From: Dipteris shenzhenensis
Taxonomy: Eukaryota
Length of the DNA: 64,000 bases
Assembly (NCBI GenBank): GCA_047967505.1
Contig: CM106538.1
Strand: one strand, 5' to 3'
Shown here: piece by piece, positions 15,144-61,025 of the stretch
Numbering within the stretch: position 1 is the stretch's first letter
Layout of the letters: the number at the start of each line of letters is the position of its first letter
Notes under the pieces: generated by a model
The model's database searches: none
What the model was told of the DNA's origin: nothing
What the model saw: only the letters and a program-made list of their open reading frames with translations
Made by a program: the position numbers and the translations under genes

Positions 15144-15149
15144 AATGGC

Positions 15150-16270: not shown

Positions 16271-16440
16271 ACATAATAAATTAGACTTTCAAAAAAGTAA
16301 AACCTAATGTATTGTAATGAAAAAATATCATAAAATATCCTAATGTATTGCAACATTTAACATAAGTTTTAAAAACACTATCATTAATCAATACAAACAA
16401 GATAAAAATCTTCAAGGACTCATGTTTCTTTCTACATGTT

Positions 16441-17178
16441 TTACAACTGCTGAATAGAGTCTGATGAGTCCTCTTGAGGCTGTGATTCTCTAAGAGTACA
16501 TTGAGTCTCTACTTGTGTGGATGGTGTACATTGAGATTCTACTTCTGGTGCAATCGGGATAGACTTAATCTCTTCCTCCTTTACAAGATGTGATGTTGTA
16601 GATGCACATTGAGTCTCCACTTCTTGTGTAGGAAGAATGCATTGAGTCTCTAATGTAGACTGTAATGCTTCTACTTGAGGCTGTGATACAGAAGGAGACT
16701 GAATTGTCTCTTCTTTTTCTTTGGCTCCCTCAGGTTCTTCATTGAGTCCATCATGTTGTTTCCCAATGATAGCAGTTAGATAGTGAACAGTCTTAGCCAC
16801 CAAATCTTGTAGCTCGAGCTTGGTATATGCTTCTATGGAGACATGTTCAAAAATTTCATTGAGATACAACATGAAGTTGTAGGCAATTCTCCACCCACTA
16901 CTAAACATGTCCTTTTGGTCCACTGCGAGGCGTGTCTAGAAATTTGGTTGGTCTTGATGCTCCCTGATTTTCATAATCGCAGAAACTAACTTGTTTGCAG
17001 ACCTGTCCATCATGACATATGACAAAGTGAATTTGTGTAGTAAATAGTAACTTGATGCATGTTCATAATGATATGATAAAAGAACACTTACTTGAACACC
17101 CCGTGAAAGCCTGTAATTGAGTTGACAAACCAACAATGGTTGTCATCAAGGTCCCATACTATCAGGCTTCAATGTGAA
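16441..17178 (-). pseudogene. Last two exons of the host element's ParB-Ulp1 gene (separated from the rest by the nested insertion)
   Basis: Exon 17178-17092 SH*SLIVWDLDDNHCWFVNS and exon 17002-16441 ...DQKDMFSSGWRIAYNF. Two stops and Cys->Ser at the catalytic position. These are exactly the exons missing after 46462. Confidence 0.85.
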
Positions 17179-17247
17179 CTACATCACCAATAAAGAGCGA
17201 TAAGATTTATCACAATATTAAGTATTAATTGACACAATATTATAAAT

Positions 17248-17273
17248 AACACCTATTTCATTAATTTTGGACT
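17248..17273 (+). repeat. Left TIR AACACCTATTTCATTAATTTTGGACT
   Basis: Exact reverse complement of 46398-46423. Confidence 0.95.
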
Positions 17274-17769: not shown

Positions 17770-18222
17770 CTAGAAGATCTCATCATTGGTCTCTCTTATC
17801 TTCTCAACAACCCAATCCTTCACTGCCTCCACAGCTGTATCCTCAACATAATTACATGAGAAGAAGAAGTTTAAGCAATCACAAATTGTTTCTTTATAAT
17901 TTCTCTGAGAGGCTCTTATTGTTCTCTCAGCATCCGCATCAAATCGCCCATGACGAGAGCTACGATAACGCAGGTTACTTAAGAAATCTAATAGATCTTG
18001 TCGTGCTTTTATCATACGTCTTAGAAGTCTTTCACTATCTGCTATCTTGAGAGTCTCCTCCCTCTCTGCGTGCCTTTGTGCAGCAAATTCCTCTCTCTCC
18101 ATGTGTGTCAAAGGAGAACCTTGTCGAATTCTGGCCTCTCTCTGTGCTCCTTGGTCAGCAATCCATTCTTTGAGATTGTTAATTCCGAACTCCACGTTTT
18201 CGACAATGCCAAGGACATCCAT
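17770..18222 (-). CDS. 150-aa helical/coiled-coil protein of unknown function (nested element)
   Basis: Intact ORF; shares LKEWIA, PLTxxExxxF, GRF and NY motifs and relative position with 14709-15143. Confidence 0.7.
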   Translation of the reverse strand: MDVLGIVENVEFGINNLKEWIADQGAQREARIRQGSPLTHMEREEFAAQRHAEREETLKIADSERLLRRMIKARQDLLDFLSNLRYRSSRHGRFDADAERTIRASQRNYKETICDCLNFFFSCNYVEDTAVEAVKDWVVEKIRETNDEIF

Positions 18223-18249
18223 GGGTGGGGAGATGATAAAGAAAGGGAG

Positions 18250-19480
18250 ATGGACTACGATGCAAGAAAGAAGAGAGTGTCTGCGGAGGAAGAACTAGGA
18301 TAGAAGATTACTTGGTTATCAAGATGGATGAAAGAAGACTCTGAGAGTGTTTGCGGAAGGACTAGGATAGAAGAATACAAGTTAATGAGAAGCACTAGGA
18401 TGCAAGAAAGAAGAGAGTGTCTGCAAAAGAACTATGATAGAAGAATACTTGGTTATCAGGATGGATGAAAGAAGACTCTGAGAGTGTTTGCGGAAGGACT
18501 AGGATAGAAGAATACAAGAAGAATACAAGTTAATGTGAGAAGCACTAGGATGGATGAAAGAAGAGAGTGTTTGTGGAAGAACTAGGATAGAAGAATACTT
18601 GGTTATCAAGATGGATGAAAGAAGACTCTGAGAGTGTTTGGGGAAGGACTAGGATAGAAGAATACAAGTTACTCAGAAGGATACTTGGTTATCAGGATGG
18701 ATGAAAGAAGACTCTGAGAGTGTTTGCGGAAGGACTAGGATAGAAGAATACAAGTTACTCAGAAGGACTAGGATGTAAGAAATAAGAGAGTGTTTGTGGA
18801 AAGACTAGGATGGAAGAATACAAGTGCACTAAGGCACGATGTGTTCACTACGATAAGGATAAGGGTTGGAATAAAGTGAGTGGCACGATGTGTTCACTAT
18901 GATAAGGGTTGGAATAAAGCGAGTGGAGATTGAATGCTCTACTTTAAGTGAGTGGAGATGATAAGGATAAGGGTTGGAATAAAGTGAGAGAAGCATTGCG
19001 AATGCTCTACTTTAAGTGAGTGGAGACTGTCCAACTGAATAAAATTCTCATTACACAAGGATTTATTTCCAAATAATCACATCATCACACATTCATATCA
19101 TAAAATTGTGTGCATGAAGAAATATATTACAAATATTACATCATCACATATTCATATCAAAATTCTCATCACACAAGGATTTATTTTCAAATAATCACAT
19201 CATCACACATTCATATCATAAAATTGTGTGCATGAAGAAATATATTACAAATATTACATCATCACATATTCATATCAAAATTCTCATCACACAAGGATTT
19301 ATTTTCAAATAATCACATCATCACACATTCATATCATAAAATTGTGTGCATGAAATAAATATATTACAAATATTACATCATCAAATATTCATATCAGAAT
19401 TCCCATCACACAAGGATTTATTTCCAAATAATCACATCATCACACATTCATATCATAAAATTGTGTGCATAAAGAAATTA
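18250..19480. repeat. Tandem repeats between the helical ORF and the protease gene
   Basis: gaaggactaggatagaagaatac-type units at 18250-18830; 118-bp unit x~3.7 at 19041-19480. Confidence 0.85.
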
Positions 19481-19568: not shown

Positions 19569-22500
19569 TCACAACTCTTGTGATGCTTCTAGTGGAGACT
19601 CTGGCAACTCTTCGGACGCTTCCAATGGAGGCTGTGGTACTGTAGATGTACACTCGGTCTCTACTTCTTTTGTAGTATGTAGTGCTTTCGGAGTAGACTC
19701 AGTATCCTCTTCCTTAAATGCAAGCGGAGGCGGTGGCAACTCTTCTGATGCTTCTAGTGGAGGCTGTGGTGCTGTAGGTGTACATTGGGTCTCTACTTCT
19801 TCTGTAGTATGCAGTGCTTTCATAGTAGACTCAGTCTCCTCTTCCTTAAAGGGAAGCTCTGGTATTGCTTCAGTTGCACGTTGTATTCTAATGGTAGCAA
19901 TTAGGTCTCGAATGATTTCAGCCCTAAACAATTGTATATCCTCCTCTGAATATTTGAGCTCCAAAGAGTCTTCCGATGAGATCTGTGGCATAAGTGAGAA
20001 AATTTCTTTGAAAATCAACATGCAGTTGTAGGCAACTCTCCACCCACAACTATGCCCATCTTCCTGCTCTACTACTAAACGCTTTTGGAAGTCTACCGAG
20101 TCTTTGTACTGTCCTGTTTCTCTGATAGCAGATACCAACTTCTCAATCGACCTGCTCATCGTGACATATTAAAAAAACTTAGTGTATCTATCACATAAGG
20201 TACATAATATAGAAGTAACAACAGATTAATAGAATACTTACGTTTGCACTGAGCCATGAAAGCCTGCAATGGAGTTAACAAACCAACAATAGTTGTCTTC
20301 AAGGTTCCAAACCACCAGACTCCAATGTTCCCTACACGAATAATTAAGAACCATTATTATTTAACACAATGTTGCCAGTACAAGATGAAAATAAAGGTTG
20401 CCATGATACTTACATCTCATGATATGCCATAAATAGGACTCGCACGCCATGTAAATGTAAAGGCTGTAATAATTTACAAACATCAGCTATTGTCTTTCTG
20501 CTATCGCTAAGTATAGGAGAAAGGAGGGAATCCAACATATACGCACGATTTTGTACGACTCTACCAAATCGTGAGATAACTATACTGCACCAACAAATAA
20601 ATGAATATTAGCTTATTAGATTTAATCAAAATAAATGAATATTAGCTTATTAGCTTATTAGATTAAATCAAAATATTGAATTATCAAGTAGAGAAAAAGT
20701 TTGTATCAAACCTGAGAATGGCCATCATAACGTTGTTATTGACCTCATTTGAAGCTCTAGAGAGAATTGAAATCTCTTCTCCCCCAAATTCAAGATACTG
20801 AGGTCTATGTTGAATCATAACCCTAACATTAAAAGAGCTTCCCAATTCTTTTAATGAGGCCATGTTTGTAGAGTTGAGGTCATCTATCCTCTTTGACTCT
20901 TTGATGGCATTCATTTCGCAATCAATGATTGCTCGAATGGTACATGTTATAAATGCATAGAGATGCAAATCGGTATATGTTGATAGTGTGGTGTCATTTT
21001 GCATCTCAAAAATTTGACCAAGTACCAAAAAGCAATTGTAGCCCACCCTCCATCCACAATTATAGATGTGGCTATTATCTTGATGTGATACCTGACATGT
21101 TATATACTCTATTTGTTGTGCCAAGTCACATTGCCGCATTACTATGTCGATAGCATCTACTAATTTTCGAGCTGATCTGCATATCAAAACATATAACAAC
21201 AGTGAATATGTGCATTGCATATCAATCTACATGTCAAGAAGTGACAACAAGTGTAGTCTATACTTACTCTAACACATTGCCATGGACGGATGTCATTGAG
21301 TTTGCAAAGAAGCACTTCTTCGCAAGGATGTCCACGACTACCAGACTCCAATGTGAGCTGCATTATCAATAAAGAATAATTACTGTGTTTGAGACAATTC
21401 TAGCAAATGCAATAGGAAAAACAAGTAGGGTTTGATGCTTACTTCTCATAATATGCTGTAAAAATAACTCGTGCGTCATTCATAGGAATGTGCTTCAACC
21501 ACTTGCAAACATTCTCTATGGTTTCTTCTTTGTTGATAAGCACTTCCGAAATACGAGGATCGAGCATATATGAAACGCTTTGTATATTTTGCGGAAAATT
21601 TGCTATAACATTGCTATATTTAAAAAAAAAGTATTAGCTTCTTGGGTTTAATCAAAATAAGCAAAGTATAAAGCCAAGGAAAAGGCTGCATCAAACCTGA
21701 GGATGGTTGTAATGACTTTGACATTAACCTCATTCTTAGGATTCAAGAGGATTGAAATCTCTTCTTCACCAAATTCAAAAAAATGAGGTTGTTGTCGAAT
21801 TAACAACATAGCAGTGAATGAACTTCCAATCTGCTCCAATAGATTCATATTTTTATGACTCATCTTATTGAGGGAGTAGTCTACATCGTATTCTTCTTCA
21901 CTTGCTATGTCCTCCACATCCTCCTTCTGCCATAAAAATATAAAAAAGTTATGCGATGTACACATCCCAAATAAAGGCTTAAACAAGCAGATAAGGTTTC
22001 ATATATGCTTTCATTAGTGTAAGTCTCTCCTCTGCTTGGAGCAAAAATTTAAAAAGGTTTCATACACGCTTTCATTAGAGTGAGTCTCTCCTTCTCTTGG
22101 ATGAAAAATTTAAAAAGTTATGAGATTTACACATCCCAAATAAAAATAATGGTTTAAATAATCATAGAAGTATAAAGATAGCATGCTTTCATTAGACAAG
22201 TTATGAGATTTATACATCCCAAATAAAATTAATGGTTTAAATAATTATAAAAGTATAAAGATAGTATGCTTTCATTAAACTCATTCTCTTCTCCTTTTGG
22301 AGGAAAATATAAAAAAGTTATGAGATTTATACATCCCACTTAAAGGCTGGAACAAGTATACAAGTATAAAGATAAGGTTTTATACATGCTGCAATGTAGT
22401 CATATTTTCATGTTGTTTCCCAATGGTAGTAATTAGATGCTGAATACTCTCAGCCCGAAATGCTAGCAGATCAGCTTCTGTATATGATTCCATTTTGACT

Positions 22501-25500
22501 GGTAACTCCAGATCAAAAATCTCTCTAAGAAACAACATGCAGTTGTAGGCGACTCTCCACCCACAACTGTGTCCATCTTTTTGCTCCACTGGCAGACGTC
22601 TTTTGAATTCTACTTGATCTTGTTGCTCCATGGTTGTTCTGACAGCAGATACTAGCCGATATGCAGCACTGTCCAGCATGACATATGAAATATATTAATA
22701 TGTCATGATCATAAGATACAAAATAAGAAAGTATCAAAAATATTAAGAGAATAATTACCTTGGGGAGTTGGCATGATAGCCTTCTATTGAATTCACAAAC
22801 CATAAATGGTTGAGTTCAAGGTCCCAGAAGATCAGACTCCAATGTGAGCTACACGACCAGAATAAAAATGATTATTGTTTTACACAAACTTGCCAAAGAA
22901 ATAGTAAAAATAAGGTTAGAGTTGATACTTACGCCTCATGATAAGGCATTAAGATGACTCGCACCCCATCTAAATTCAAAGGGCTTAACCAGGTACAGAC
23001 ATCTTCTATAGTCTTTTGAGGAGAGCTAAGAATAGAAGAAAGGAGAGCATCGAGCATGTAGACACGATGCTGCACTGTACTAGGAAGTTGAGAAATAACT
23101 ACACTGCACCAAGAAATAAACAAACATTAGCTCATAGAATTGATTTGCATTCTGCACTAGGAAACTGATATATAACTGAACTGTGAATAAATAAACAAAT
23201 GTTAGCTTATTGAAGTAGCAATAAATAAATAAACATTACCTGAGAATGGCCAAGATAACGTTGTCATTAACCTCTTTTAAAGGATTGGAGAGGATTGAAA
23301 CCTCCTCTCTACCAAAGCTTAAATACTGAGGTTCTCGTTTCAAAACGATCTTAACTTGAAATGAGCTCTCCATTTTATCTAATGCAGCTAAATTTGATTT
23401 TTCAATCAAATTTAGAGGTGGTTGCATTGTTGAAGTGGAAGGGAGTGCCTCCGTATTGACTTCATCCATTTCTTCTCCCTCTATTGCCTGTAAATAAATA
23501 TGAGAGATTAGAGTCATTATCTTTAAATTTAAATCTTATTTAAAAAATTGTATTTAGTTGAGAAATAGAGAGTTCATACCGCTAAGTATTGTCGTAGTGG
23601 CCTTTTTTCATAACCCTGAGAGCCATAATTATCAAAGAGGGCATCATCATATTTGTCTTCATCCACCAACCTCTCTGTGAATGGGTCATGTAAGTCCATC
23701 TTTTCATCATTAACAACTGGGACATTATGATCTTCAAGGTAATCATCCATGTCATCGGTGTCCTTGTGGTCTATCTCTTTTTCATAGCCTGTGGTTAGAT
23801 CTGCTTGAAGCTGGAAATAGGCCATGAAATGCTTATTTTCAATAATATTGGTGGAGTTGCCTTTTCTTAGGAGATCCTCAAATAAATATCCCATCCTGCA
23901 CAAGGTGACCTCCCAACCTGCCGGCAGCAAATTCTCCATCATGGTAAGCAAGAGACTCCCACTTTTTGCAGGACTTCCGTAGTTGTTTTTCTGATAATGT
24001 ATGGACCTGGGAATATCTTGCTCTTCTAGCATCAATCTCAAATTATTTGAATTCCCTCTTATGTTCTTTTGTAAAGAGTGATCAGGGTTGGGACTCCGCA
24101 TACATAGAAAGAATGATTCAAGAGTTTGAATCGCTATGCCACATTCTCTCTTGCCTCTCTTTGCTGCATAAACACCACTATAGATCTTCAAATCTGATGA
24201 ATATGCTCGCTCTAGAGTAACCTGCATGGCTTCTTTGTCTTTTTTATCAACAAATATGACAATGTTACAAATCGCCACTTTGCTAATGGTGGTATATACT
24301 ATTCTATCAATGAAGTTATGGATATCATCGCTAGAAACTTCATTGATAAAGAATAGTTGTGGCTTATCCCATGCTGACTCATTCTTAAAGAAGTCATCTT
24401 CTGAGACTCCCCTGAAGTTGACAAGCTTTCCAGACTCTGCCGTAACCTCTACATTGAATTGAAAGCTTTGGTGCATATCTGTTGGCATTCTTATCTCGCT
24501 GATTAATCTTTCCACATATGCAACCACCTGTTGTGGGATCTCTTTTCTCATATAAGAGGTTACTATTTCCGACCCATCTTCATCCTTTTTAATCCACCTG
24601 TTGGCCCATAGCTTTACCTTGGGTGTTGACAAAGAAGCTATATGCTTCACCACATTATAGTCAATGTTGCAATGAGTAAGTGGAATTTGTTTCTCTGACA
24701 GCAAATACTTGATGGCACTATGCACTGCATCACGCCTCACCTGTACATTGATGCATTCTTCCATGCAGTGGTCTTTGTCTTTTTTTCCAAAAAACCATTC
24801 TTTCTTTAAAATTCTTTGTGCTGCCATGGATGCATACTTATCAGGTAAGTACTTTACAGGCCTCCACATCCTTGCCGTCAACTCCTTCTTATCCATTACC
24901 TTTGACTTGCCGGAGATAAACAAAGGAGCTTCATAGGTCAGCTGTCCACGCTCACAAGCAATGCACGTTTCAAGCATCTCATTGAACACTTCAACAGGAC
25001 GAAAGATGATAGAAGTATAGTCGGCATATCTGTCCCTCACCACCTTGAGGCTTGTCATACTTTCTTCCCGCTCTTGGGTTCCCCTAGGCACAACTGCACT
25101 CAAAGAAGTATAAAAGTTTGTGAGTGTGTCGGCGTCTGCTTTTGTGACCTTTCGCTTCAAATCAGGATTTGGGGAACCAAATGTTGTCCATATCACCCTT
25201 GCCTTCTGTAAGACCTCTGATGTTGAGGATATCTTACGCTTTCCATGGACATAATGATTAAGTCTTTCGGACTCAATCAAATATTTAATCTCATGCTTGA
25301 ATATACAGATCGTTGCAGGATAATAATGGAATGAGCTTATCTTTACAAATTGTTCTGGAGTGAGTCTTTTGCCCTCCTTTGCTTCCCTTGCGATCTGATT
25401 ACAAGCATAAGCCCAATGTTGACCATCAATGGGCTGGAATCTGCAATGAAGGAGAAATTCCTTCTTGACTTCCTTTAGCATATTCTCTCCTTGTGCCTCT

Positions 25501-26789
25501 TCGCCTCGTTCATGTGGAATATTTTTTAGAGTGTTTTTAAAGAATTGACTGAAGATCTCCTCGAAATGTGTAGGCCCTGTAAATGTTATTTGATCCAGAA
25601 AACTATTTTTGGTTGGACAAAACATTATTGGGCGCAAGACCACATTACTTGCCACAGGTTTCTTGCCATCTCTCAAAGCCTCGTATATTTGCATTGCATA
25701 GGATATATCAAGGCTTCGGCTATTAGTAAACAGAGCTGCAGCTTCCACATCTTTGGCATTCACAAACCACGTCCTTTGACCCCAGATATATCCCACATCA
25801 TCATCTGTAACTGCTTCATTAAGACGCAGATTAAGATTTTTAATTGATGTGAGTTCATCTTGATCATCTTCAGCCTCGGATTCTGAGTCTTCTTCATCTT
25901 TCTCTTTTTTTGACTGTTTTTCATCCACATTATCTTTCTCTACAGTGGGACGATGTCTTTTCTTACTGCTTGGAACCGTGGCTCTTGCAGTACTAGCCTT
26001 TTGCATTTCACGTCGTGGCTTGCTAGCAAGAGCTTCTAGCATAACTGCAGTGGATCGACCTTGATCTTCTTCAATTTTTGCTAATTCCCGTGCACTCAAG
26101 GCTTGTTTTTCATCATCCTTAGTTACATTCACCATTTCTGGCTCTACAAGTTTGCGCTCATCTTCTACAGGTTTGTGACAGTGTGCCTGTTCTTCTTGTC
26201 CCTGCATTGAAGTCTGAGCTTTTTGATCTCCTTCATGTGATGATTCTTGCATATGGAGAGCATATTCTGCATCCTGAAAGTATTCAAGCATTATCTTTGC
26301 ATGCATCATTTTTGCCACCACACTAGGAAATTGCTCCCAAGTATATGAAAGAGTCTCCAATGCCCTTTGCAACTCTGGAAACTTTGATGGTTGAGGAGGA
26401 GGCATCACAAAGGTCTTTGCGTCTCTCCTTGACACAATAAAATGCATACCGCCAACTTCAGGATCTGAACTCTTTGTTAAAATATCCACAAATGTGTCTT
26501 TTCGCTGAATTATTATGCCTACTACAAGGCTTGAAGTCATATCTTTTTTGAAGAAAGTAGCATCCCATGGATCTTCAACACCATTGAACTCCCTTTTTGA
26601 CATAAGTAGAAAGAGTCTCTTTTCCTTTTGATGAAGAAACCAGGCTCTTCTACCCATGTGATATCGAGTCCACCTACCAAAGCCATTGGGGCTATATTCC
26701 TTTCCTTTGAAATTCAAAGTGACATCAGAAACCCATTCTCTGATCTCAGAGTCATCTAGCATAGCCATCACATTAGCTGATTGCTCCAT
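19569..26789 (-). CDS. Spliced ~1,933-aa protein: ParB/Srx-like (DGQH) domain + degenerate methyltransferase-like domain + 3x Ulp1/C48 cysteine protease
   Basis: Inferred GT-AG coding exons: 26789-23580, 23487-23240, 23103-22933, 22848-22759, 22668-22386, 21926-21697, 21613-21443, 21357-21268, 21176-20712, 20584-20414, 20331-20242, 20151-19569. They total 5,802 nt and join in frame with no stop. Each protease repeat has 171-nt and 90-nt exons with HWSL...NS and Q...CGWRV motifs. Confidence 0.8.
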
Positions 26790-27923
26790 AATCCTACAAG
26801 AAAAGATAATGAAGAATTTAGATACATACAAGTAAAGTACAATATACAACCCTTGATACAATAAATGTGGAAAATAGCCCAAAAGGCTTTACAAGGCTTC
26901 ATATGGCAATAAATGTGGGAAATAGCCTAAAAGGCTTTACAAGGCTTAAATATTTGTACAAATGTAAAAGAATTAGCCAATAAAGCTTTACAAGTAATAT
27001 AAAATGTCGTCTAGTGATAAAGCTTCAATCTTCGTGAAGATTCATGTAATCTATCCATCCATTGATATCTGAGCACTGATACCCAACTGTTGCAATCTAT
27101 CCACTAAAAACTGTTCCACTGATATCCACTTATGCAGCCCACATGATATCCGCTTATGCATCCCACTGATACTCGTTAATTAGTGAATGGTCGGGATGGT
27201 CGGGTTTATTACAAGGCGCTTCATATGACAATAAATGTAAAAAATAGCATAAAAGGCTTTACAAGGATTTTTATGACAATAAATGAGCTTAAATATTTAT
27301 ACAAATGCAATAAAAATAACCAATAATCATCAAGCTCCAATATGTCCCATGACATGTAATCTGTCCACTGATATATGCAATCTGTCCACTGATATCTGCT
27401 CATGCAATCTGTCCACTGATATTTGCTCATGCAATCTGCCCACTGATAAACTTCTTGGTAAATGGTAAAAGGTCTTATTTAATAGCATGTTATGAGTGTT
27501 AAACCGCATGTGAGCGAAGGGACTGACAACGAATAGGAACTAGTTAGAAAAATTTGAGCATGGCTTCGATTGGCAACTTGGAGAATTGTCTCTCCTCTAA
27601 GGCAATCTAATCTATGCTAAACTATGCTAAACCAACCGTCGAAGCGAAGAAAAGCAATAAATAATTTCTTTTTCTGTGTTCATTTTAATGTGCTGGGGTT
27701 TAAGAGGCTTAAATATGCAAAAGAAGGGGTTGTGATGTAGAGGCTAAACCTGCATGTGATATAAATAAAGAACAAGTATCTAAAGAAAAGTTAACATTTT
27801 TCAATTTAAAAGATGAATATATATAAAAACATTATCTCACTTTCAAAATAAACCATAAATTCACTCTTTTATAATTTTTTAAAAGTATAATATAAAGTAT
27901 GTAAATATATAAAACTCTCTTTA

Positions 27924-41258: not shown

Positions 41259-44200
41259 ATGGCTATAGATTTTGTTCCAGGGATGGATGTGATTTTATGT
41301 AGCAAAAGAGAAGTAGTTGCATTTGCTACAATCCATGATAGTGATCCCAATTCTCTTTGCCACTTTCGAAGACTTGGCGAAGATAAGGTAGCAGTTACTG
41401 TATCAAAGATTCTTAGCGCACATGTTGAGCTAAAGTATAAATGTGGAGATATGGAAACACTTGGAGATGTTATGCCCTACAATACATCCAACAAATCATT
41501 TATAGCATGGGACAAAGATGAGACTTATGCAACAGACATTATCAAGAATACAAAGTGCACCACCTTGGATTTTACTATAGGGGACATTCTACAAATGAGA
41601 TCATTTGCAAATAAGATTGTAGCAGAAGGTGAAGTATTGGGATTTGAACAAGTGGAGCAATGGTCATTTGCGCAGATGAGGATTCTAAAAGTCACTGATG
41701 ATGGTATGGTTGATAACATAACATCCTTATGTGATCCCTACTATGAGGTAGGCAAGAATATGAGATGGAGCATGCAATTTTTAAACATGAGAAAGAGGCA
41801 CGTGGTTTTCAATGATAAAGACAACGCATACTACAATATCAAAGGACCTAAAAAGCGTGCCCATGTGCCAGGCTCTATCACTTCAAATGTGGATGATTTC
41901 AATATACTCAATTATAGAAGTGACATCTTATCTGGAGTGGATGAGTTCATTGGTTCCAAGAAACAAAATGATTTTAGAAGCGAAGCCTTATCTGGGGTGG
42001 ATGAATTCTTGCACAGTGAGAAGGGCAAAGGTTTCAATAGCGATGTCTTGTCAAGTGTGGATGAGTTCATGCATATTAACAAACCTGGTGTCAATCAAGG
42101 TTGTGGATTTGTGAAATCCATGCAAGATGTCCCAATGAGTGATGTTCTCTCAGGAGTGGAAGAGTTTCAAGGTTCTCAATACTCTCGTAGAATATTGAAT
42201 TCATTGAATGGTCCTAAGAGTATGTTAAAAATGAGGATGAGATCAACAGAGGATTATTCAGTATTTAACTTTGATTGTGATATGAACAAGGATGCAACGA
42301 CCAATCATGGATGCTTGGTTACAAACAAATGTGAGGAGAAGAAGTGCATAAATACAGATAACAATGTGTACGAGGAACGAAAACGGTCATACATATGCAT
42401 GAAGAGAAAGAGAATCCAGGCAGATCCACAAAAGCAACCAAAGAGGAAGAGAGTAATGAAGGAGGAGAACATGTTAAATGCATTGGGATATCTATGTTGC
42501 AAGCGAAGATGTATGCGCTTCATTGATCTTGCAGACATCAGGGAATGTAGAGGACACGTGTGGCAAAGAAGGGGAAGCGAAAGAAATGAATACCTTCTCA
42601 CAAGTCTCTCTTGCTTTCTTCAGAATGGCAATAAAAGGCTAAGTTCAAGACAAAAGGTAAAACCTCTCGTAAATGGAAAAAGGATTTGCAATAAGGCATA
42701 TCGCAATATTACTGGATTATCCCATGGTACATATTGGGATTTAGTCACCAAGGCAAAGGGCGGCAACAAATTTAGCATTCACGGTAATAGAGGAAGGTCC
42801 AAATCAAGAATCTCAACTGTCAGGGCAGCAGCAATTTTACAAGACTTCATACATGAAAATGCTTTGCCTCAACCCCATATATCTACCAAACTCCCTAACG
42901 GTGACGCGATCACTGAAATGCACCTTCCAATGGGCTTGACAAAGCTCGAAGTATTTGACTCTATTGCAGAAAAGCAAAGGCAAAGAGGGGATGCTGTAGC
43001 TTCTTCTCATACTTTGTATACTCTTTGGAAGAAGAACTTTGGATATGTTAAAATCCCAAGGAGGCAAAAAATGTCAAAGTGCAATGTCTGTGATGATTTA
43101 AAGCGAGCGATTGAGAGTGCAACATGTCCAAATCAAAGGGAATTATACAAAAAAAACTGAAAATCTCATCATGACCTTATTCGACATTCCAGACAAAAAT
43201 ATGCATTTTGGAAGGAGCAAGCTATTTCGCATCCTGATGACTACATGTGTCTTATTGTAGATGGCATGGATCAGAATACAACAACATTGCCTCGTTTTGT
43301 TGCCACTCCACCTAAATTACAAGGAAAGCACTTTCTAAAGACACATCTATGTGTAGTGTTAGTGCATGGAATTAAGTTCTTTGCAGATATATGGATTGAT
43401 TCCTTGCATCTACATGATAGCAATCAAGTTGTAACATCTATTATGAAGGCAATTCGCAATGTACATGCAGAAAAAGGTCGCCTGCCACCGACTTTGAGAA
43501 TACAAGCTGATAATTGCTGGCGAGAAAATAAGAATGTACTTATGTTTGCCTTCTGCTCCATGCTAGTTGCTCATCGAATCTTCAATGAGGTCGAATGTGG
43601 ATTTTTGTATGTTGGGCATACACATGAGGATATCGATCAAGTTTTTAGCACAGTCTCAACGGAGCTTAAATGCAAGGATGTGGAGACAATAGATGACTTG
43701 GTAAGAAGATGTGGCAGGCAAGTTGGTGGTCGTAAGGAAAGTACAGTATGTGAGAGGCTCGAAAGAATGTATGATTGGAAGAGCTTCATTCTACCTTTCA
43801 TACAAACGGGTGGTGATGCATTGACAGGTCATACCAATCCACACTACTTTCGTTTTTTTTTTAAAGATGAAAAACCCGTAATGCAATGGCAACAGTATTC
43901 TCATGATACAAAATGGGAACCTGAAGAACCTTACAGTCTCTTAACTTCAATTCCCAGCAAGGAAAGGTATCCAACATGGGCTCCTATACAAGAATTTAAT
44001 GAGAGGTCTAATTGTGAAATAGATGGATTAAAAGCATTTATTACATACAAAGAGGAAATGCTCCAGAGATATCCTGATTCGAAGCCTGCTTGGAGAGAAC
44101 ACACTACCACTGTAATTAACAAGACACGAAATTTAATAAAGGACCTTGAGAGAATGCGAGGCTCAAAGGATGTCAAGGAAGAATGCAATATGTTTTGGCC

Positions 44201-44729
44201 AAATGTTCATAACGATTTGCGCCCAGCTCCAGTCTTTGAAAATGATTTTGTATCATTACTCCCACGTCCATATTGTGGACCGAAGAAGAGAGAGTTTATG
44301 CCACAAGTAGATATAGAGGTTGATTGTTTTGTTGTGGTTCGGCCATCGGATGATGAATATGAGAATGTGAAGTTTTGGGTTGCAAAAGTAGTTGATGTGC
44401 AAAGAGATGACCAAGGGAGAGCTACAACATTTACAGCGGTATGGTATGAGCCAAAGGGCAGGAAGGAGAATATGGATAACAACACATTATATACTAATTG
44501 TATAATGAAGGAGTGGGTCCCAAATGATGAAGCAGTCTCTCAAGTTTCGACAGAGACAATCATAGTGTCTTGGCATTCAAGGGCAAAGAAATCAAAGAAG
44601 CACATGGGATATGAGGTAGAAGGAAAAATAAAAATACCACAGCAAACTATTTTGCATATACACGAATTTTTAAGGATGCTCGCCATGGAGGAAGTAGAAG
44701 GAGATAGCGCAAATGAAGAATGTCGATGA
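41259..44729 (+). pseudogene. Sola1-like DDD transposase (~1,155 codons) with a single in-frame stop at 43158-43160
   Basis: ORFs 41235-43160 and 43245-44729 are in the same frame. Motifs: CCKRRC, ICNKAY, KCNVC, IVDGMDQ, QADNCWRENKN, FLYVGHTHEDIDQ. Splice acceptor at 41229 with branch-like gactaat, then ATG at 41259. Confidence 0.85.
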
Positions 44730-46461: not shown

Positions 46462-49400
46462 TTCTCATAGTATGGCATAAAGACAAGTAGTATGCCATCC
46501 AAGTCTAAAGGTTGTAGAATTGAACAAACATCATCTACTATCTTCTTGGTATCACTAAGTACAGCTGAAAGAAGAGAATCGAGCATACAAACGCGATTCT
46601 GTACTAATCTAGGAAAATGAGATATAACCGTACTACAGCAATAAATAAACAAATGTTAGAAGCAGATTGAATCAAATGATTGAAGTATCAAGTCAAGAGA
46701 TGTTCATATCAAACCTGAGGATGGCCATCATGACTTTGTCATTAGCCTCTTTCAAAGGGTCGGAGAGGATTATAACTTCCTCGCTACCAAAAGCCAAAAC
46801 ACGAGGTTGCTTGCTAATGATGACCTTAACCTCAGAAGAGCTCCCCATTTCGTCCAATACAGCGGTTACATCAGGACAACTTATGGGCGTAGCAACCAAT
46901 GTTTCCTCTGGATGCTCCACCACGTTATCAATAAATGCCTTAATGATAGATGACATAAATGCATATAGATGCAAGTCTGTATATGTGGACAATGAGGTTT
47001 CACCGCCTCTCAAATCAAAAATTTGAGCAAGGAGCAAGAAGCAGTTATATCCAACTCTCCACCCACAACTGTGGTCATCATTCTGCTTCGCTGCAGGGCA
47101 TGTTACATACTCTATTTGATCTTCCAAGTCACCCTCCATTTGCATAAGTGCATCTGTAGCACTTACCAACTTTCGAGCAGATCTACACATCAAAATAGAA
47201 AACATAAATGAATGTGCGCATTGCATAGGATGCATCTCATTGACATAATTATGACACAAGTAGGTTATACTTACTCTGACACACTGCCATGGATAGATGC
47301 TATTGAATTGACAAAGAAGCATTGCTTGGCTAAGATGTCCACAATTACCAAGCTCCAATGCAAGCTGCATTATCAATTAAGAATAATTATTATTTAATAT
47401 AATCCTCCACAATGTAAGAGATAAGCTAGGTAGGGATTGATACTCACTCCTCGTGATATGCGGTAAAGATAACTCGCGCCGCAGTCAAATCAATAGGTTG
47501 CAACCACCTAAAAATGTCATCTATGGTCTTCTCCTTATTGCTAAGTACACTAGAAACAAGAGGATCGACCATATATGCACATCTTTGTATATATAGCGGA
47601 AGCTGTTGTAAAACCATACTGCAATAAAAAGAAAAGAATATTAGTTCATTTGATCCAATGGAAATACAAAAGCATAAAGTCAGTAAAAAGTTTGTGTCAA
47701 ACCTGAGGATGGCTATTATAACCTTGTCATTGACCTCTTTCTTGAAGTTTATGAGGATTGAAATATCCTCTTCATCGAATATAAAAGTAAGAGGTTGTTC
47801 TTGAACTTGAAACCTAACTTGAAATGACTTCTCCATTTGCTGCAATGTATGATTATTTTCTAGAGTCATCCGATGGATAGCCAGAGCAGCTTTGCTTTCT
47901 TGAGATGAGCTTTCATGATTCTCTGCTCCAACTATGTCCTCCTCATCCTCCTCCTCTCCCTTCTCCTATAAAAGGATAAAATAATTATGAGATTCAAAAT
48001 TTTAAATTAATTATAAATTTAAAAAGACCTTTAAATGAATAAAGAAAATTAAACATAAGTCTTCATACCTCTACATATCTTCGTGGTCTTTTTATGTAAC
48101 CTTCAGAGGCAAGGTCAGTGTCATATCCATCTTCCTCTGCTTCCTTGCTATCGCTGGTATCCTCACTATTATATCCAGAGCTTTGATCATTTTCATCATC
48201 TTTCTTGCTCTCATCGTACATGATCTGCTCTATGTCATCCTCTTCATGTGAGATCGGACCTTTCTTATCAAACTTTATTGTGAGAGAAGCCACGGTATCA
48301 AGGTATTCCAAGCAAGTAGGGCTCTCAATAATATTTACATTGTGTCCTTTTCTGATAAGAGCTTCAAACAGATGTCCCATTCGGCACAATGTGACTTCCC
48401 ATCCAGACGGTAGCAAAAATTCCATCATACTAATTAAAAGATCAGCACTTTTTGCTGGCCTTTCATAGTGATTTGCATTGCGATGGAGGGGACTTGGAGC
48501 TTCATGCTCTTCCAGCAGTAGTTGCAATCTCTTTGCATTCCCTCTTATATTGTTTTGTAAGGAGTGATCATTATAAGGGCTCTTCATGCACAAGAAAAAG
48601 GTTTCTAGACTCGGTATCTTGAGACCGCATTCTCTCTTGTCCCTTTTTCTTGAGTATATCCCATTGTAAATCTTGAGCTCATTGCCATATTGTTTTTCTA
48701 GGGTAGCAGACATTTGTTCCTTGTCATCTTTATCAGCAAATATGACTATATTACATTGTCCCACTCTACCAATGGTGGTATGTAATATTCTGTCAAGGAG
48801 TGGATGGATGTCATCCGCTGATATTTCATAGACAAAGAAAAGCTGAGGTCTCTCCCAAGCAGTGTCGTCGGACAAAAAATCACTCAATGAAACTCCCTTG
48901 CACTCAACACTCTTTCCAGACTCTGAAATGATTTCATGTATGAAATAAAAGCCCTTGTTCAAAGTCTTTTCTTTTCTGAGAGTGTGGTTATTGATGACTT
49001 TTTGTGCATATGCATACACATTTTCCGGAATGTCACTTCTCATAGAGGGAGTAATTTCAGATCCATCATCTTCTACCTTCACCCATTTATGCGCCCAAGC
49101 CTTCTATTTAGTTGACGGTAAAGCTGATGCCATCTGCCTCACAATGTTATGATCAATTTTACATTGGCTGATTGGAATATTTTTTTCTCCCAATAAATAT
49201 TCAATTGCACTCTTTACTGCATCACGCTTGACCTGTTGGATGATGTTATCTTCCATGCAATGATCTTTATCCTTTTTGCCAAAAAACCATTCTTTTGACA
49301 TTAATTTCTCTGCAGCAAGACTTGCGTATTTATCTGGTAGGTTTCTTAAAGGCCTCCACATCCGAGCTGTCATCTCTTTTTTCTCAATCTTCTTTTCCTT

Positions 49401-51455
49401 CTCTTTAATCAATGATGGAGCCTCATATGTAACATCTCCTTTCTCACATGCAAGACACACGTCTTTGATCTGATGAAAAACTTCATCACTACGGAAAAGT
49501 ATGCTTGTGTAGTCTTGATATCTATCCCTTACTGTCTTGAAGCTTGTAATCACCTCAGCTCTTTCCTGCTTTCCCCTTGGTACAATGGCACTCAAGCATG
49601 TGTAGAAGTCAACAAGATTATCCGCTTCCACTTTAGTTGCAGTTCTTTTGAGAGTGGTCAAAGGAGAATTAAAAGTTTTCCATATGGTCCTAGCTTTGAG
49701 CAACATCTCTGAAGTGGAGGTGATTTTTCGTAGTGCATAAATGTCATGATTAAGTCTTTCCGACTCAATCAAATATTTCTTCTCGTTCTTGAAGATACAG
49801 ATGCATGCAGAATAGTAGTGAAATTGAGGCACACTCGCGAAAGTTTGATAAGTAATTTCTCCTTTCTTGTATGCATCTCTAGAGCGCTCATTACAAGCAT
49901 AGGCATAGTGCTGACCATCTATTGCCTCAAATGTACAATGAGCTAAGAAATTTCTCTTGGCATCCCTTATATGTCGTTCTGGATCATTCACTGAACTCTG
50001 TCCTTCTTGAAGTGAGGGAACTTGTTTTCCGAGGAACTTAGTGAATTGCATCTCAAAATCTATAGGCTGAGAGAAATTGATGGATTGACTATAATCTCCC
50101 ATGACTGGCCAAAATGTTCTTGGACGGAGTACCAAATTAGAAACAACTGGTTTTTTTCCATCAATCAAAGCCTGAAAAATCTTTTCAGCATAGGCTGTAT
50201 CTAAGGTCCTGCTGTTGGTGAAGACACTTGCTTTGACCACTGTTGAAGCATGTATAACTTGAGTCTTCTGGCCCCATATATATCCTGGATCCTCATCTGT
50301 CACAGCCTCATTCAAGCAAAGATTTAGGTTCTTCATTGATAACATTTCTGCTTCTAGATCTGACTCCATTTCAAGACCCTCCGCATTCTCTTCATGTTCT
50401 TCCTCTTCTCTTCTTTGCCCTTTCTTTGTATATGAACGACCTCTTTTTCCAGTTATAGGACTTGGAATTGTAGCTCATGAAGTACTTGCCTTTTGCATTT
50501 GACGTCGAGGTTTATTTTTTAGAGGCTCAATGTGAACTGCTTTAGATCGCCCTACTTCTTCTTCTATTGCGTCAACTTCAGGTATACTTAAGGGCTTCAC
50601 TTGTTTTGTTATTCCATCAACTTCATGAGTTACACCATCTAAGTGAGTAATACCATGAACAAGAGATGTGTGTGAATGTCCTGTCTTATCTGATGCATGT
50701 CGTGTCTCACTCAATTCAATTTCTGTCTGAGATGCATGTGCATGTCCGGTCTCCACCAATTCAATTCCTGTCTCAGATGTAGATCCCTTGTAAGCATCCA
50801 CGTGTACAAGACCCTCATCCATTGCTACAATGTGTTCTGTCTCATCCACTCCACTTCCTCTCTCATTTGTATTACCATGAACCAAATCTACATGGCGTGT
50901 CTCATCACTTCCTTTCTCATGTGTGGATTCTTGCACCTTAGGTCCCTCCAATGAAGTTGAACCTTGTTGGATGACACCCTGAAAGTATTCAAGGATAATC
51001 TTTGACTGCATTTTTCTTGCTTCCTCAATGGGAAATTCCTCCCACACATGTTGAAGGATCTCCAATGCAGGAACCAATTCAAGAAATCTAGGTGCTTTTG
51101 GCAGCGGCATCACAAAGTGTATTGCATCTTTCTTAGAAAGAAGAAACGATCTGTTGCTCATTCTTGACTTTGTGTAAATCATCATTGTAGTGCTGTCTTT
51201 TTCAATTTTTATTCCTACTAAAGTGCCCCCTTGAATCAAATTGCTCTTGGAGAAAGATACATTTGATGCGCACTCATCTTTCTCCAACTCTCTCTTTGTC
51301 ATCACTAGAATGAGATTTCCTTTACTTAAGACCAAGAACCATGCTTTCTTTGTTGTGTCAACAACTGTCCAGTTTGTGAAGTCCTTTGGGGCATAAATTC
51401 TTCCATTGTATTTCAGTGTCATACCATTGACAAATGCTGTAGCCTCAAGATCCAT
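46462..51455 (-). pseudogene. Host-element ParB/Srx-like + methyltransferase-like + Ulp1 gene (continues at 17178-16441)
   Basis: Large exon 51455-48069 in one frame with two premature stops (50475, 49104) and motif FEAIDGQHYAYAC. Exons 47965-47703, 47618-47448 (171 nt), 47364-47275 (90 nt), 47182-46715, 46632-46462 (171 nt). Colinear with 19569-26789. Confidence 0.85.
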
Positions 51456-55735: not shown

Positions 55736-55764
55736 CTATTAGATTATCTTCTCTCTCTCTCCCA

Positions 55765-57826: not shown

Positions 57827-60800
57827 ATGGCTACAAAATTTATTCCGGGGATGGAGGTGATTTTATGTTGCAAAAGAGAAGTAGTTGCATTTGCTACAAT
57901 CCATGAAAGTGATCCAAATTCTATTTGTCACTTTAGAAGACTTGGCGAAGATAAGGTAGCGGTTATCGTATCAAGGATTCTTAGTGCACATGTTGAGCTA
58001 AAGCATAAGTGTGGGGATATGGAAATACTTGGAGATGTTATGCCCTATAATACTTCCAACAAAGCATTTATTGCATGGGACAGAGATGAGACTTATCCAG
58101 CACATGTCATCAGGAATACAAAGTGCATATCTTTGGATTTTAGAGTGGGAGATATTTTACAAATGTTATCATTTACAAATAAGTATGTAGCAGAAGGTCA
58201 AGTCTTGGGATTTGAACAAGTTGAACACTGGACATTTGCGCAGATGAGAATTCAAAAAGTTACTGATGATGGTATGGATGATAACTCAATGTCATTGGAT
58301 GGTCCCTATTATGAGGTAGGTAAGGATTTGAGATGGAGCATGCAATTTTTAAAGATTGGAAAGACTCGGCATGTGGTTTTTAATGACAAACATAATGTAT
58401 ACTACAACATCAAAGAATTGAAAGAATATGCCAATGTACCAAGCTCTATTCCTTCAGAGATGGATGATTCCAATGCACTCAACTATAGCACTGACGTCTT
58501 ATCAGAAGTCGATGAGTTCATTGGTACCGAGAAAGAAAAATATTTCACAAGTGATGCCTTATCCGGGGGGATGAGTTCATGCACATTGAGAACTTGGGCA
58601 AAGATGTGAAAAGTGTTATATCTTCAAGCATGGATGGCTTCATGGATACTGATAAAGTTCTTGGAGTCAAAGCAGGTAACTATGGAATTATGGAAATCAT
58701 GCACGATAGTATAATGAGTGATGTTCTCTCTGGAGTAGAGGAGTTTCAAGACTATGGAGTTATGAAATCCATAGAAAGTGCATCAATGAGCGATGTTCTC
58801 TCAGGAATAGATGAGTTTGAAGATCATTCTGGACACTCTATCACCACTGACTATGGAGTTATGAAATCCATAGAAAGTGCATCAATGAGTGATGTTCTCT
58901 CAGGAATAGATGAGTTTGAAGATCATTCGGGACACTCTAATGCCATTGTGACAAGTGGTTCTACGATTGTATCAAAAGTAGGGATGAGATCAACAAAGGA
59001 CTATTCGGTGTTTGACTTTGATTGTGAACTTGTAAATGTTACAAATGGTTTGACAAATGTATCAAAAGAAAGGATGACATCAACAAAGGAATATTCAGTA
59101 TTTGACTATCAGAGTGATAAGATCAAGGATGCAACATCTCATGAAAACAACGTGACAAATAAATCTTACAAGGAGAACTACACAAATCCAAATAAGAATG
59201 AACAGAAGGTCCCAAAACGGACATACAGATGCATGAAAAGACAACGAGTGCAGGCAGATCCAGAAAAGCAACCAAAGAGAATAAGAGTAATGAATGAAGA
59301 TGTTATGCTAAAAGCAATGCGATCTACATGCTGTAAGCATACATGTATGCGATCCATTAACTTACATGACATCAAGGGTTGTAGAGAACATGTCTGGCAA
59401 AGGAAAGGAAGCAGAAGAAATGAATACCTACTCACGAGATTGTCTTGCTTTCTTGTAAATGATAAGAGAAGGCAAAGTTCAGGACATCAAATAAGGCCTC
59501 TTATAAATGGAAAAAGTATATGCAATAATGCATATCGCATTATTACAGGATTATCACATGGCACATATTGGAATTTGGCTAATAAAGCAAAGTATGGAGT
59601 TAAATTTAACATTCATGGAAACATAGGAAGGCCCAAAACAAGAGCCTCAACGGTTGCGGCAACAGCAATTTTGAAAGATTACATTTATGAAAATGCTTTA
59701 CCGCAACCCCACCTATCAGAAATGCATCTTTCGATAGGTTTGACCAAAAAAGAAGTATTTAACTCTATTGGAGAAACACAGAGGCAAAGAGGGCATGCAC
59801 CGGCATCTTTTCATACTTTGTATACTCTTTGGAAAAAAAGCTTTGGACATGTTAAAATCCCAAAGAGGCAAAAAATGTCAAAGTGCAACGACTGTGATGA
59901 TCTAAAGCGAGCACTTGAGAGTGCAACATCTCCAGAACAAAAAGAAGCTTACAAAAGAAAGAGAGAATTTCATCATGGACTTGTTCGACATTCTAGAATA
60001 AAATATACATTTTGGAAGGAGCAAGCTATTTCTCACCCAAATGAGTACATGTGCATTATTTAGATGGTATGGATCAAAATACAACAACATTACCTCGATT
60101 CGTTAACACTCCACCTAAGCTACAAGGCAAATACTTTTTAAAGACACATCTATGTGGAGTGTTAGTGCACGGATTTAAGTTTTTTGCAGACATATGGATT
60201 GATTCCTTGCATCTACACGATAGCAATCAAGTTGTAACATCCGTTATGAAGGCAATTCACAATGTACATGCAGAAAAAGGTCGCCTACCAGCAACTTTGA
60301 GAATACAAGCAGACAATTGCGGACGAGAGAATAAGAATGTACTCTTCTTTGCATTTTGCTCAATGCTAATCGCTCATAGAATCTTCAATGAGATTGAAGT
60401 TGGGTTTTTGTTGGTTGGGCACACACATGAGGATATCGATCAGGTATTTAGCATAGTTTCAAGAGAACTAAAACACAAGGACATGGAGACAATGGATGAC
60501 TTGATAAGAAAATGCGGGAGGCAAGTTGGTGGCCGTAAGGAAGGAACAATATGCTCAATGGTTGAGAGGATGTATGATTGGAAGAGCTTTATTCTACCTT
60601 TCATACAAAAAGGTGGTGATGCCCTGATTGGTCATAGCGCTCCACACTATTTTCGATTTTTCTTAAAGGATGAAAAACCAGTGATGCAATGGCAACACTA
60701 TTCTCTTGATACAAAATGGGAACCTGAAGAACCTTACTCTCTCTTAACTTCAATCCCGAGCAAAGAAATGCATCCAACATGGGCTCCTATAAAAGAATTC

Positions 60801-61025
60801 AGAGAGAAATCCAAAGGTGAAATAGAAGGCTTAAAAGCTTTTATTGCATACAAAGAGGAAATGCTCCGGAGATTTCCTGATTGGAAGCCCTCTTGGAAGG
60901 AACACACTACTGTTGTAATTAGCAAGACCTACCAATTGATAAAGGACCTTGCAAAAATGTGAGAAGATGATATTAAGGCAGAACGGCCTTTATTTTGGCC
61001 AAATGTTGCTAATGACTTGCGTCCT
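57827..61025 (+). pseudogene. Host-element Sola1-like transposase, disrupted and 3'-truncated
   Basis: Colinear with 41259-44229. Frameshifts at ~58570 and ~60060, stop at 60960; DGMDQ, DNCGRENKN and VGHTHEDIDQ retained; splice acceptor at 57797. Confidence 0.88.

Follow-up and report, generated by a model that had tools for sequence, protein, structure and literature searches.

The DNA considered here is a 64,000-nucleotide stretch of Dipteris shenzhenensis (contig CM106538.1 of assembly GCA_047967505.1), called the window throughout. Its minus strand carries gene A, a predicted gene of 12 exons whose product would comprise, in this order, an N-terminal domain, a charged linker, a ParB/sulfiredoxin (Srx) fold, a helical region, a methylase-like domain and three Ulp1-type protease units. 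A first-pass annotation, made from the letters of the sequence, had seen the ParB-like part and the proteases of this layout but missed the methyltransferase-like domain between them. A diverged paralogue (copy B) and a decayed third copy (remnant C) lie within the same 64 kb, as do two genes of the DUF7869 transposase-like type. The positions of these features are collected in Table 1.

Table 1. Gene A, its domains, its copies and the DUF7869 genes of the window. Exons are listed in the direction of transcription; a slash within a splice site marks the exon border.
Feature	Position	Strand	Remarks
Gene A, whole	19569..26789	-	1,934 codons plus stop; curated model, chance controls, exon and intron GC content
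Gene A, exons 1-6	26789-23580, 23487-23240, 23103-22933, 22848-22759, 22668-22386, 21926-21697	-	curated junctions
Gene A, exons 7-12	21613-21443, 21357-21268, 21176-20712, 20584-20414, 20331-20242, 20154-19569	-	curated junctions
Exon 1 (residues 1-1070)	23580..26789	-	ends at donor G/GTATGA
N-terminal conserved domain, unknown fold (residues 1-170)	26280..26789	-	36% identity to copy B
ParB/sulfiredoxin-fold domain (residues ~327-520)	25230..25811	-	AlphaFold2 domain model and structural matches
Helical middle region (residues ~521-773)	24471..25229	-	full-length KorB, Noc and ParB chains align
Beta-class N6/N4 DNA-methyltransferase-like domain (residues ~774-1009)	23763..24470	-	structural match, low-confidence model
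Ulp1-type unit 1 (residues 1071-1334)	22386..23487	-	exons of 248, 171, 90 and 283 nt; His1212, Asn1229, Cys1275; P0023 E 3e-34
Ulp1-type unit 2 (residues 1335-1600)	20870..21926	-	His1470, Asn1487, Cys1538; P0023 E 1e-34
Ulp1-type unit 3 (residues 1601-1934)	19569..20869	-	His1712, Asn1729, Cys1776; P0023 E 7e-33
215-bp block upstream of gene A	27488..27700		82% identical to 51937-52147 upstream of copy B
Copy B, diverged paralogue	46462..51455	-	one full protease unit and start of a second; 3' end lost
Remnant C, decayed third copy	16453..17210	-	last protease exons and tail, with stops; found in the window by tblastn with the units
DUF7869 transposase-like gene, copy 1	41259..44729	+	1,156 codons, one in-frame TGA at 43158-43160
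DUF7869 transposase-like gene, copy 2	57827..61024	+	~80% identical to copy 1; frameshifted

Gene A runs from 26789 to 19569, and its 12 exons join in frame without internal stops. The spliced length comes to 5,805 nucleotides with the stop codon, i.e., 5,802 coding nucleotides and a protein of 1,934 amino acids under the predicted splicing. All 11 introns are of the GT-AG type; ten measure 82-136 nucleotides and one 459. Donors are mostly G/GTAAGT-like, acceptors are (C/T)AG after pyrimidine tracts, and the content of guanine plus cytosine (GC) is 40.5% in the exons and 27.4% in the introns. Among the open reading frames the gene shows up as a stop-to-stop frame on the minus strand (23574-26888, 1,104 codons; 1,071 residues from the ATG at 26789) and, downstream of it, as shorter open pieces with repeated protein motifs. 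It stays hidden there because three exons of 90 nucleotides are too short to be listed and because the first donor contains an apparent stop: the in-frame TGA at 23574-23576 is intronic and belongs to GCG/GTATGA. The first-pass annotation had joined 12 GT-AG exons into 5,802 nucleotides free of stops, and this is borne out by the curated model at the same coordinates.

The exons were chained with a dynamic programme that links GT-AG introns and maximises length, and the junctions were then curated by reading. The length-maximising model itself (5,958 nucleotides) was rejected, as exons 2 and 6 were over-extended and protease unit 2 was misread, with a false loss of its histidine. The real protease region reaches a chain score of 2265 with 10 introns. 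Used as a control, the opposite strand scores 1218-1365 with 16-17 introns, and dinucleotide shuffles (n = 30, best of three phases each) have a mean of 1157 and a maximum of 1464, none of the 30 reaching the real score. The exon plan also recurs from one protease unit to the next, a variable first exon being followed by exons of 171, 90 and about 283 nucleotides with phase-2 junctions. Gene A is confirmed, better than chance, as an intact intron-split gene with predicted splice sites.

Copy B allows a comparison of the two halves of the gene. Its large exon is interrupted in frame by a TGA at 50475-50477 and a TAG at 49104-49106. The first donor reads GAG/GTATGA, with the same GTATGA as in gene A, and a phase-0 acceptor follows in both copies. 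Protease exons of 171, 90, 468 and 171 nucleotides with canonical splice sites are present, and the spliced protease part is free of stops over 387 codons. Gene A and copy B share only 66-70% identity at the DNA level, and their large exons are 50% identical overall (36-58% by segment), with nonsynonymous (dN) and synonymous (dS) divergence of 0.42 and 1.89, respectively. In the proposed frame, the ratio of nonsynonymous to synonymous proportions (pN/pS) is 0.47 for the large exon and 0.51 for the protease exons. In the two shifted frames it rises to 1.01 and 1.18 (large exon) and to 1.13 and 1.03 (protease exons). Purifying selection is therefore seen only in the proposed frames, which means that both parts evolved as protein in exactly those frames. 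The 215-bp block upstream of the two copies is with 82% more conserved than the coding sequence, and could serve in regulation, form a 5' exon or mark an end of the element. An Rfam scan of the window, this block included, found no family.

The stretch is also represented in four public sequencing runs, all of them as DNA contigs and three labelled 'algae metagenome'. Contigs from the four runs cover gene A at 90-99% identity. Both indels within the gene span are intronic, introns making up 19.6% of the span: a 1-nucleotide deletion at 21405 (intron 7) occurs in all four runs, and a 42-nucleotide deletion variant at 20624-20665 (intron 9) in contigs of two runs, X1 and X2. Among the 243 differences listed, 34 are substitutions in gene A. 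The exons hold 29 of them, of which 14 are synonymous. All these counts are low and the list is partial, but they agree in direction with the comparison of A and B.

Within the large exon, the ParB/Srx-fold domain carries the motifs TNSR, LRPI, IDGQHW and ESERLN (25274-25257). The motifs quoted in the first-pass annotation, TNSRSLDISYAMQIYEALRDGKKPVASNVVLRPI...FQPIDGQHW, were found again, with IDGQH at residues 454-458 (window 25430-25416). Residues 325-545 were folded alone with AlphaFold2, giving a predicted local distance difference test score (pLDDT) of 77 and a predicted template modelling score (pTM) of 0.70; for residues 320-1010 with a family alignment the pLDDT was 64. The best match of the ParB-like model was B. 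subtilis ParB-CDP (6sdk_B), with a VIA Z of 8.5 and a root-mean-square deviation (rmsd) of 2.8 over 95 aligned residues. It was followed by M. xanthus ParB (8.2 and 8.1), PadC (8.1), Noc (7.5), C. crescentus ParB (7.5) and sulfiredoxin (7.0). This list is a VIA re-alignment of the top 1,000 chains from Foldseek; its top 19 rows, down to Z 5.5, are all of the ParB/Srx fold, and the next row has a Z of 4.8. In an unbiased structural search of all against representatives, 7 of 7 chains with Z of at least 5 again had the ParB/Srx fold (PadC 7.8, Arabidopsis sulfiredoxin 7.2, KorB-CTP 6.9, pNOB8 ParB 6.3, human sulfiredoxin 6.0, serine kinase SerK 5.6 and Atu1540 5.0), the next row being 4.8.

Modelling of the DGQH region, which had been suggested before, thus returned a ParB/Srx fold, and on these models the assignment of residues ~327-520 stands. 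The predicted domain shares its fold with the N-domain of the bacterial ParB CTPases, Noc, KorB, PadC and sulfiredoxin (Z 8.5-7.0, 93-99 residues aligned), and its conserved motifs sit in the same order as what we take to be the ParB boxes. It differs from ParB in an inserted helical hairpin of ~45 residues (model residues ~80-126) and in its eukaryotic transposon setting. The N-terminal domain had no Pfam match, and an Atlas search with the first 175 residues gave no usable match; a disordered acidic/basic low-complexity linker follows at residues ~170-325. On the other side, full-length chains of KorB, Noc and ParB align over model residues 18-377 with a high rmsd of 5.9-13 A, which is suggestive of the helical middle region being a ParB-type central DNA-binding domain, as it may be.

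The region between the helical part and the end of exon 1 (model residues 455-690) resembles a beta-class DNA methyltransferase. The best match was M1.HpyAVI with S-adenosylmethionine (SAM), at a VIA Z of 7.3 and an rmsd of 3.9 over 155 residues, followed by MboIIA and a type III Mod subunit (both 6.8), RsrI and M.BceJIV (both 6.7), PvuII and TTHA0409 (both 6.4) and CcrM and a rotifer N4 methylase (both 5.5). At least ten beta-class enzymes appear at Z 5.5-6.8, and macrodomains and other unrelated rows do not exceed 5.0. The top probabilities in Foldseek, 0.82 and 0.77, belong to the same beta-class enzymes, but with E values of 0.15 or worse. In our own reading of the model, the predicted strands and helices follow one another as in the permuted beta-class plan. 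Motif IV and motif I were placed by the strand order of the model. At the place expected for motif IV (D/N/S-P-P-Y/F, DPPY-type), gene A has FFINEVS and the relatives have sequences of the FDCRR type; at the place of motif I (FxGxG), the SAM-binding glycine loop, gene A has CRMGYLF and the relatives have sequences of the QGLTATV type. Both motifs are replaced in all six sequences that cover the region, i.e., the two copies in the window and four relatives.

With its catalytic and SAM-binding motifs lost, this domain is therefore probably a DNA reader and not an enzyme; residues ~774-1009 rather probably have a methylase-like fold without the activity. Its modelled fold and secondary-structure order resemble those of M1.HpyAVI, MboIIA, RsrI, M.BceJIV and PvuII (Z 7.3-5.5), and it differs from these beta-class methyltransferases in having neither the conserved motif IV nor the SAM-binding loop. 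N6_N4_Mtase enzymes of bacteria and phages often carry an N-terminal ParB-like domain, in the same order as in gene A. A check of phage methylases for such a ParB-methylase fusion found the ParB domain in none of three.

Relatives of the large exon are rare. Searched exhaustively with HMMER, 1.84 billion representative proteins yielded only 14 at E<=0.001, four of them at E<=1e-10 and none at E<=1e-30. One, annotated as a hypothetical protein, comes from the lycophyte Diphasiastrum complanatum, and the rest are metagenome or assembly proteins; none of the 14 had a Pfam match at E<=0.01. Three long relatives (P0006, P0012 and P0020; 1,097-1,488 amino acids) align over the whole of residues 320-1010 and end without a protease part. 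The family consensus keeps TN.R, LRP, EP(V/I)DGQH...AC and Y...S.R.N. A word-indexed homologue search with the large exon found no relatives, nor did metagenome scans with the protein P0017 and with an alignment of the WEPVDGQ clade. Scans of viral contigs likewise found no relatives of the family. As no viral relatives were found and the window holds no capsid or other viral genes, a viral origin of the Polinton or giant-virus type was dropped.

The protease part was recognised through the fourth exon of each unit. When a profile of these exons was run against the longer database proteins, two matched at E<=0.01, one of them the fern protein P0023 (E 7.8e-9), a 503-residue protein of Adiantum nelumboides. 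P0023 matches PF02902 (Peptidase_C48) at residues 223-372 with E 5.2e-6 and 26.9 bits, against a curated cut-off of 20.7. The three spliced units align to residues ~152-412 of P0023 with 28-30% identity and E values of 7e-33 to 1e-34. None of these alignments has a gap at a predicted splice junction, which therefore gives independent support for the splice sites. Single exon pieces had no PF02902 match in Pfam, as expected for fragments. In the PDB, the only natural match of the fourth-exon profile was Ulp2 (5lnb_B; E 0.34); de novo designed TIM barrels, which topped that list, were taken as spurious.

All three units have the histidine (in HW), a glutamine 5-8 residues before the cysteine (within EQKDGHSCGW in unit 1) and the cysteine in (S/N)CGWRV. 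The histidine of unit 2 sits in the hidden 90-nucleotide exon at 21357-21268. Unit 3 ends in a Pro/Glu-rich repeat tail (132-bp unit, 1.9 copies, 19602-19857). By their sequence, the units are predicted proteases of a C48 subfamily with a His-Asn-Cys arrangement; the asparagine in place of the catalytic aspartate and the (S/N)CGWRV active-site motif are shared with P0023 and P0024. The three Ulp1-type proteases of the first-pass annotation are upheld as C48 kin through P0023 and by the histidine, glutamine and cysteine of each unit, but not in the catalytic aspartate. Ulp1/SENP (C48) domains borne by DNA transposons, e.g., Mutator-like ones, are likewise of C48 type with histidine, glutamine and cysteine, and CACTA, Ginger2 and Zisupton elements carry such domains as well. 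Gene A differs from these in the triple tandem array, which is fused to ParB-like and methylase-like parts and not to a transposase.

In P0023 itself, a histone H3 fold (E 8e-23) is combined with a domain of the same Ulp1 subfamily (EDGHSCGWRV, asparagine for aspartate). In a search against the PDB only histone H3 was found among the matches listed. Either this fusion of histone and protease is real, or the gene model is a merger.

The window is repeat-rich eukaryotic DNA with a GC content of 33-46% outside the repeat arrays. The same order of features is met twice: a minus-strand gene of the gene A family, about 1 kb of upstream DNA with the 215-bp block, a C-rich array, tandem repeats and a plus-strand DUF7869 gene. 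Each of the fuller copies, A and B, thus has a DUF7869 gene beside it. For DUF7869 copy 1 the Pfam family PF25273 was found at 43164-44729 with E 1.1e-52; the long N-terminal part had no Pfam match, the transposase-like protein had no match among PDB sequences, and no mention of DUF7869 was found in the literature searched. The tandem repeats before copy 1 are 45 copies of a 182-bp satellite (32918-41094). Those before copy 2 are about 135 copies of the plant-type telomere repeat TTTAGGG (printed unit TAGGGTT; 56742-57688). The latter array lies inside the window, with about 60 bp between its end and the block common to both DUF7869 genes.

The C-rich arrays (29646-32132 and 53661-56700, plus strand) reach up to 77% GC in DNA of about 40% GC. 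They have periods of ~78 and 111 bp with GC palindromes of the GGCGGCCGCGGCCGCC type, and each lies between the ParB-protease gene and the DUF7869 gene. Downstream of DUF7869 copy 2, a block at 61119-63135 recurs at 10441-12250 with 85% identity; its recurrence upstream of the frames at 13.5-18.3 kb suggests a third, partly deleted unit of the large repeat. These frames lie on the minus strand downstream of gene A. Two of them (17770-18294 and 14709-15869) are paralogous and helical and share LKEWIA...REE, and a further frame of 259 amino acids is found at 13549-14328. The frames in 13549-18294 had no Pfam match and could represent additional genes of the same element. A large imperfect palindrome of 408 bp at 12453-12860 is about 80% identical to its own reverse complement.

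We lean, with modest confidence, towards gene A being an intact accessory gene of a large DNA-transposon family marked by DUF7869, whose product would bind the DNA of the element and bring protease activity to it. In this proposal, the ParB-like and methylase-like modules would hold the protein on the DNA or chromatin of its own element. Once there, the three proteases would strip SUMO, or another modifier of the ubiquitin-like kind, off silencing factors or the transposition machinery, and the element would thereby stay active or expressed. The clamp pictured in the first-pass annotation, which would deliver deSUMOylase or deubiquitinase activity to the chromatin of the element, is plausible by analogy. 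The analogue is VANC/KIU of the Arabidopsis Vandal elements. It recognises, by sequence-specific binding, motifs that belong to its own element family, and it brings about hypomethylation and an escape from silencing (PMC13317346). The Kaonashi branch of VANC carries a Ulp1 domain, the role of which is given as unknown (PMC13317346).

VANC/KIU of Vandal, a Mutator-like element of the kind without terminal inverted repeats, is also an accessory gene apart from the transposase and also combines an element-recognising part with Ulp1. In contrast to gene A, VANC is not of the ParB/methylase fold and has one Ulp1 domain, whereas gene A has three and its partner is DUF7869 and not Mutator. VANC relieves the silencing of its own family (PMC13317346); for gene A such relief is proposed by analogy. 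What would be new is the combination of ParB-like, methylase-like and three Ulp1 parts, within the known kind of transposon accessory proteins with Ulp1. Among the literature matches listed (titles and abstracts), none described a ParB-Ulp1 fusion in transposons, and the literature searched held nothing that brings a ParB-like protein, a transposable element, a eukaryote and a SUMO protease together.

Several findings weigh against this assignment, and part of them concern the gene itself. The joining of exon 1 to the protease exons is a prediction, and the four runs covering the stretch consist of DNA contigs without splice joints. In the protease part, introns 1-3 are 71-78% identical between gene A and copy B, compared with 67-78% for the exons, which is not fully explained; short signal-filled introns, gene conversion and an over-fitted global alignment may all contribute.

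Others concern the domains. Foldseek searches of the PDB with the ParB-like model and with the model of residues 320-1010 gave no match at E<=0.001. In Pfam, neither a ParB-like nor a methylase-like match was obtained with the large-exon protein P0001 (E<=1) or with 18 family members (E<=10), and phmmer with P0001 against the PDB found none at E<=10. Since no Pfam or PDB sequence profile recognises the ParB-like domain, support for it lies at the level of the fold. Arg-bearing nucleotide or phosphate motifs are typical of the fold, namely GxxR in ParB, GGCHR in Srx and DGQHR in DndB-type proteins. Here the aspartate, glycine, glutamine and histidine of the motif are kept and the arginine is not: both window copies are without it, tryptophan following in gene A (IDGQHW) and tyrosine in copy B (IDGQHY), just as the first-pass annotation had read them. 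In the seven relatives in which the motif was seen, DGQH is followed by I, V or F and never directly by arginine. Compared with ParB, gene A thus has no sequence-profile match, and the Arg-rich GxxR-type motif is replaced by DGQH plus W/Y. Of the earlier claim, the fold has survived in the models, but sequence profiles are blind to it and the signature arginine is missing.

The methylase-like region of the model has a low pLDDT of ~45-68. When the six-sequence family profile was compared by hhalign with ten PF01555 methylases (E. coli YhdJ and nine phage enzymes, four of the ten confirmed by Pfam), the probability was 0.45%. In the protease units, the catalytic aspartate of C48, ~17 residues after the histidine, is asparagine in all three, in the context F-x-N-S, and also in copy B and P0023; this position was assigned by motif spacing and not by structural alignment. 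With the ParB/Srx arginine absent and the C48 aspartate replaced, either activity may be lost or altered.

No clear borders of the element were found either. Terminal inverted repeats and target duplications were not found, and the flanks of both genes held short inverted matches at chance level; the window contains no complete, recent copy of the element against which ends could be compared. As no ends were found, gene A is a candidate for lying inside a defined element, and it and the DUF7869 gene may sit in one transposon. Moreover, both DUF7869 genes are damaged (the TGA in copy 1, frameshifts in copy 2) and copies B and C are decayed, and the family may no longer be mobile here.

The fusion of the two halves is the point at which another reading of the locus begins. 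The large frame could be translated up to the TGA at 23574, with the protease exons as a separate or silent gene and the fused protein absent or a minor isoform. An in-frame stop does lie one codon past exon 1 in both A and B, an unspliced message would encode 1,071 amino acids, the full-length relatives P0006, P0012 and P0020 have neither a protease part nor a Pfam match, and the splicing of exon 1 to the protease exons is predicted from DNA alone. However, this 'stop' is part of a canonical donor, G/GTATGA, that is kept in two copies with saturated synonymous sites, both acceptors are in phase 0 after a pyrimidine tract, the gap of only 92 nucleotides between exons 1 and 2 leaves no room for a promoter, and the protease exons are selected in the same frame; we consider two products unlikely. 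Equally unlikely is a domesticated host gene, with copy A immobile and kept by the host for a function in chromatin or the SUMO pathway. It would agree with the intactness of A over 1,934 codons beside damaged B, C and both transposase genes, with the synonymous excess among near-identical copies in other samples (14 of 29) and with the missing element ends. It does not sit well with three copies in 64 kb, two of which keep their position relative to the DUF7869 gene and the C-rich arrays, in a region that is repeat-rich; and a family of only 14 relatives in 1.84 billion proteins is unlike a conserved host gene.

The ParB-like and methylase-like parts might also form an enzymatic module, i.e., a ParB-like nuclease or nucleoside triphosphate-dependent enzyme, or an active atypical methyltransferase that marks the element, comparable to prokaryotic ParB-methylase or Dnd/Ssp-type systems. 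Nucleotide-bound ParB, KorB, the serine kinase SerK, SbnI and SspE are among the fold matches, as are SAM-bound beta-class methylases, and the TN.R and S.R.N motifs are conserved across the family. Against this, motif IV and the glycine loop are replaced in the two window copies and the four relatives that cover the region, the ParB/Srx signature arginine is absent and there is no profile similarity to true methylases, which leaves an enzymatic module very unlikely. That gene A is a decaying transposon gene, open by luck and with no present function, is the least credible: its neighbours are pseudogenes and the gene is known here from DNA only, but the controls never approach 1,934 stop-free codons at 35-40% GC, purifying selection is frame-specific, and all 12 residues of catalytic type (His, Asn, Gln and Cys in each of three units) are retained.

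Returning to gene A as an accessory gene of the DUF7869-marked family, a protein-language-model search with residues 320-1010 placed it nearest to fungal DUF3723 clusters, with a score of 0.95 and 182 of 256 features shared. The Pfam model of DUF3723 had no match at E<=10 in the 18 family members, and nothing linking DUF3723 and ParB was found in the literature searched, so that a kinship of the gene A core with DUF3723 is a lead only. DUF3723 (PF12520) is a conserved accessory gene of the fungal Starships, its function being tabulated as unknown (PMC9156397). DUF3723 and gene A would have in common that they are accessory genes of large mobile elements (PMC9156397). If the link holds, a conserved gene of the Starships would gain its first structural hypothesis. 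In a broader and decidedly unlikely reading, the core would be a eukaryote-wide accessory family absent from Pfam, derived from prokaryotic or phage ParB-methyltransferase fusions, with DUF3723 of the Starships as one branch; a nucleotide-gated DNA clamp would load on the element and spread over it, and in this algal lineage it would take three SUMO-type proteases along the chromatin of the element to strip silencing marks. If this were true, a bacterial-style partition and spreading machine would have been reused for eukaryotic anti-silencing.

Proteins of the ParB-CTPase fold are central to the biology of bacterial chromosomes and plasmids, and to our knowledge sulfiredoxin is almost the only eukaryotic representative of the fold. 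A ParB-like protein of this size, under selection and borne by a eukaryotic transposon, would widen the known roles of the fold, especially in combination with a methylase-like DNA reader and three Ulp1 proteases. As the family is missing from Pfam, it is invisible to automatic annotation. Gene A would be a second, independent example of the design found in VANC/KIU of Vandal, and would make the role of Ulp1 domains in transposons easier to study.

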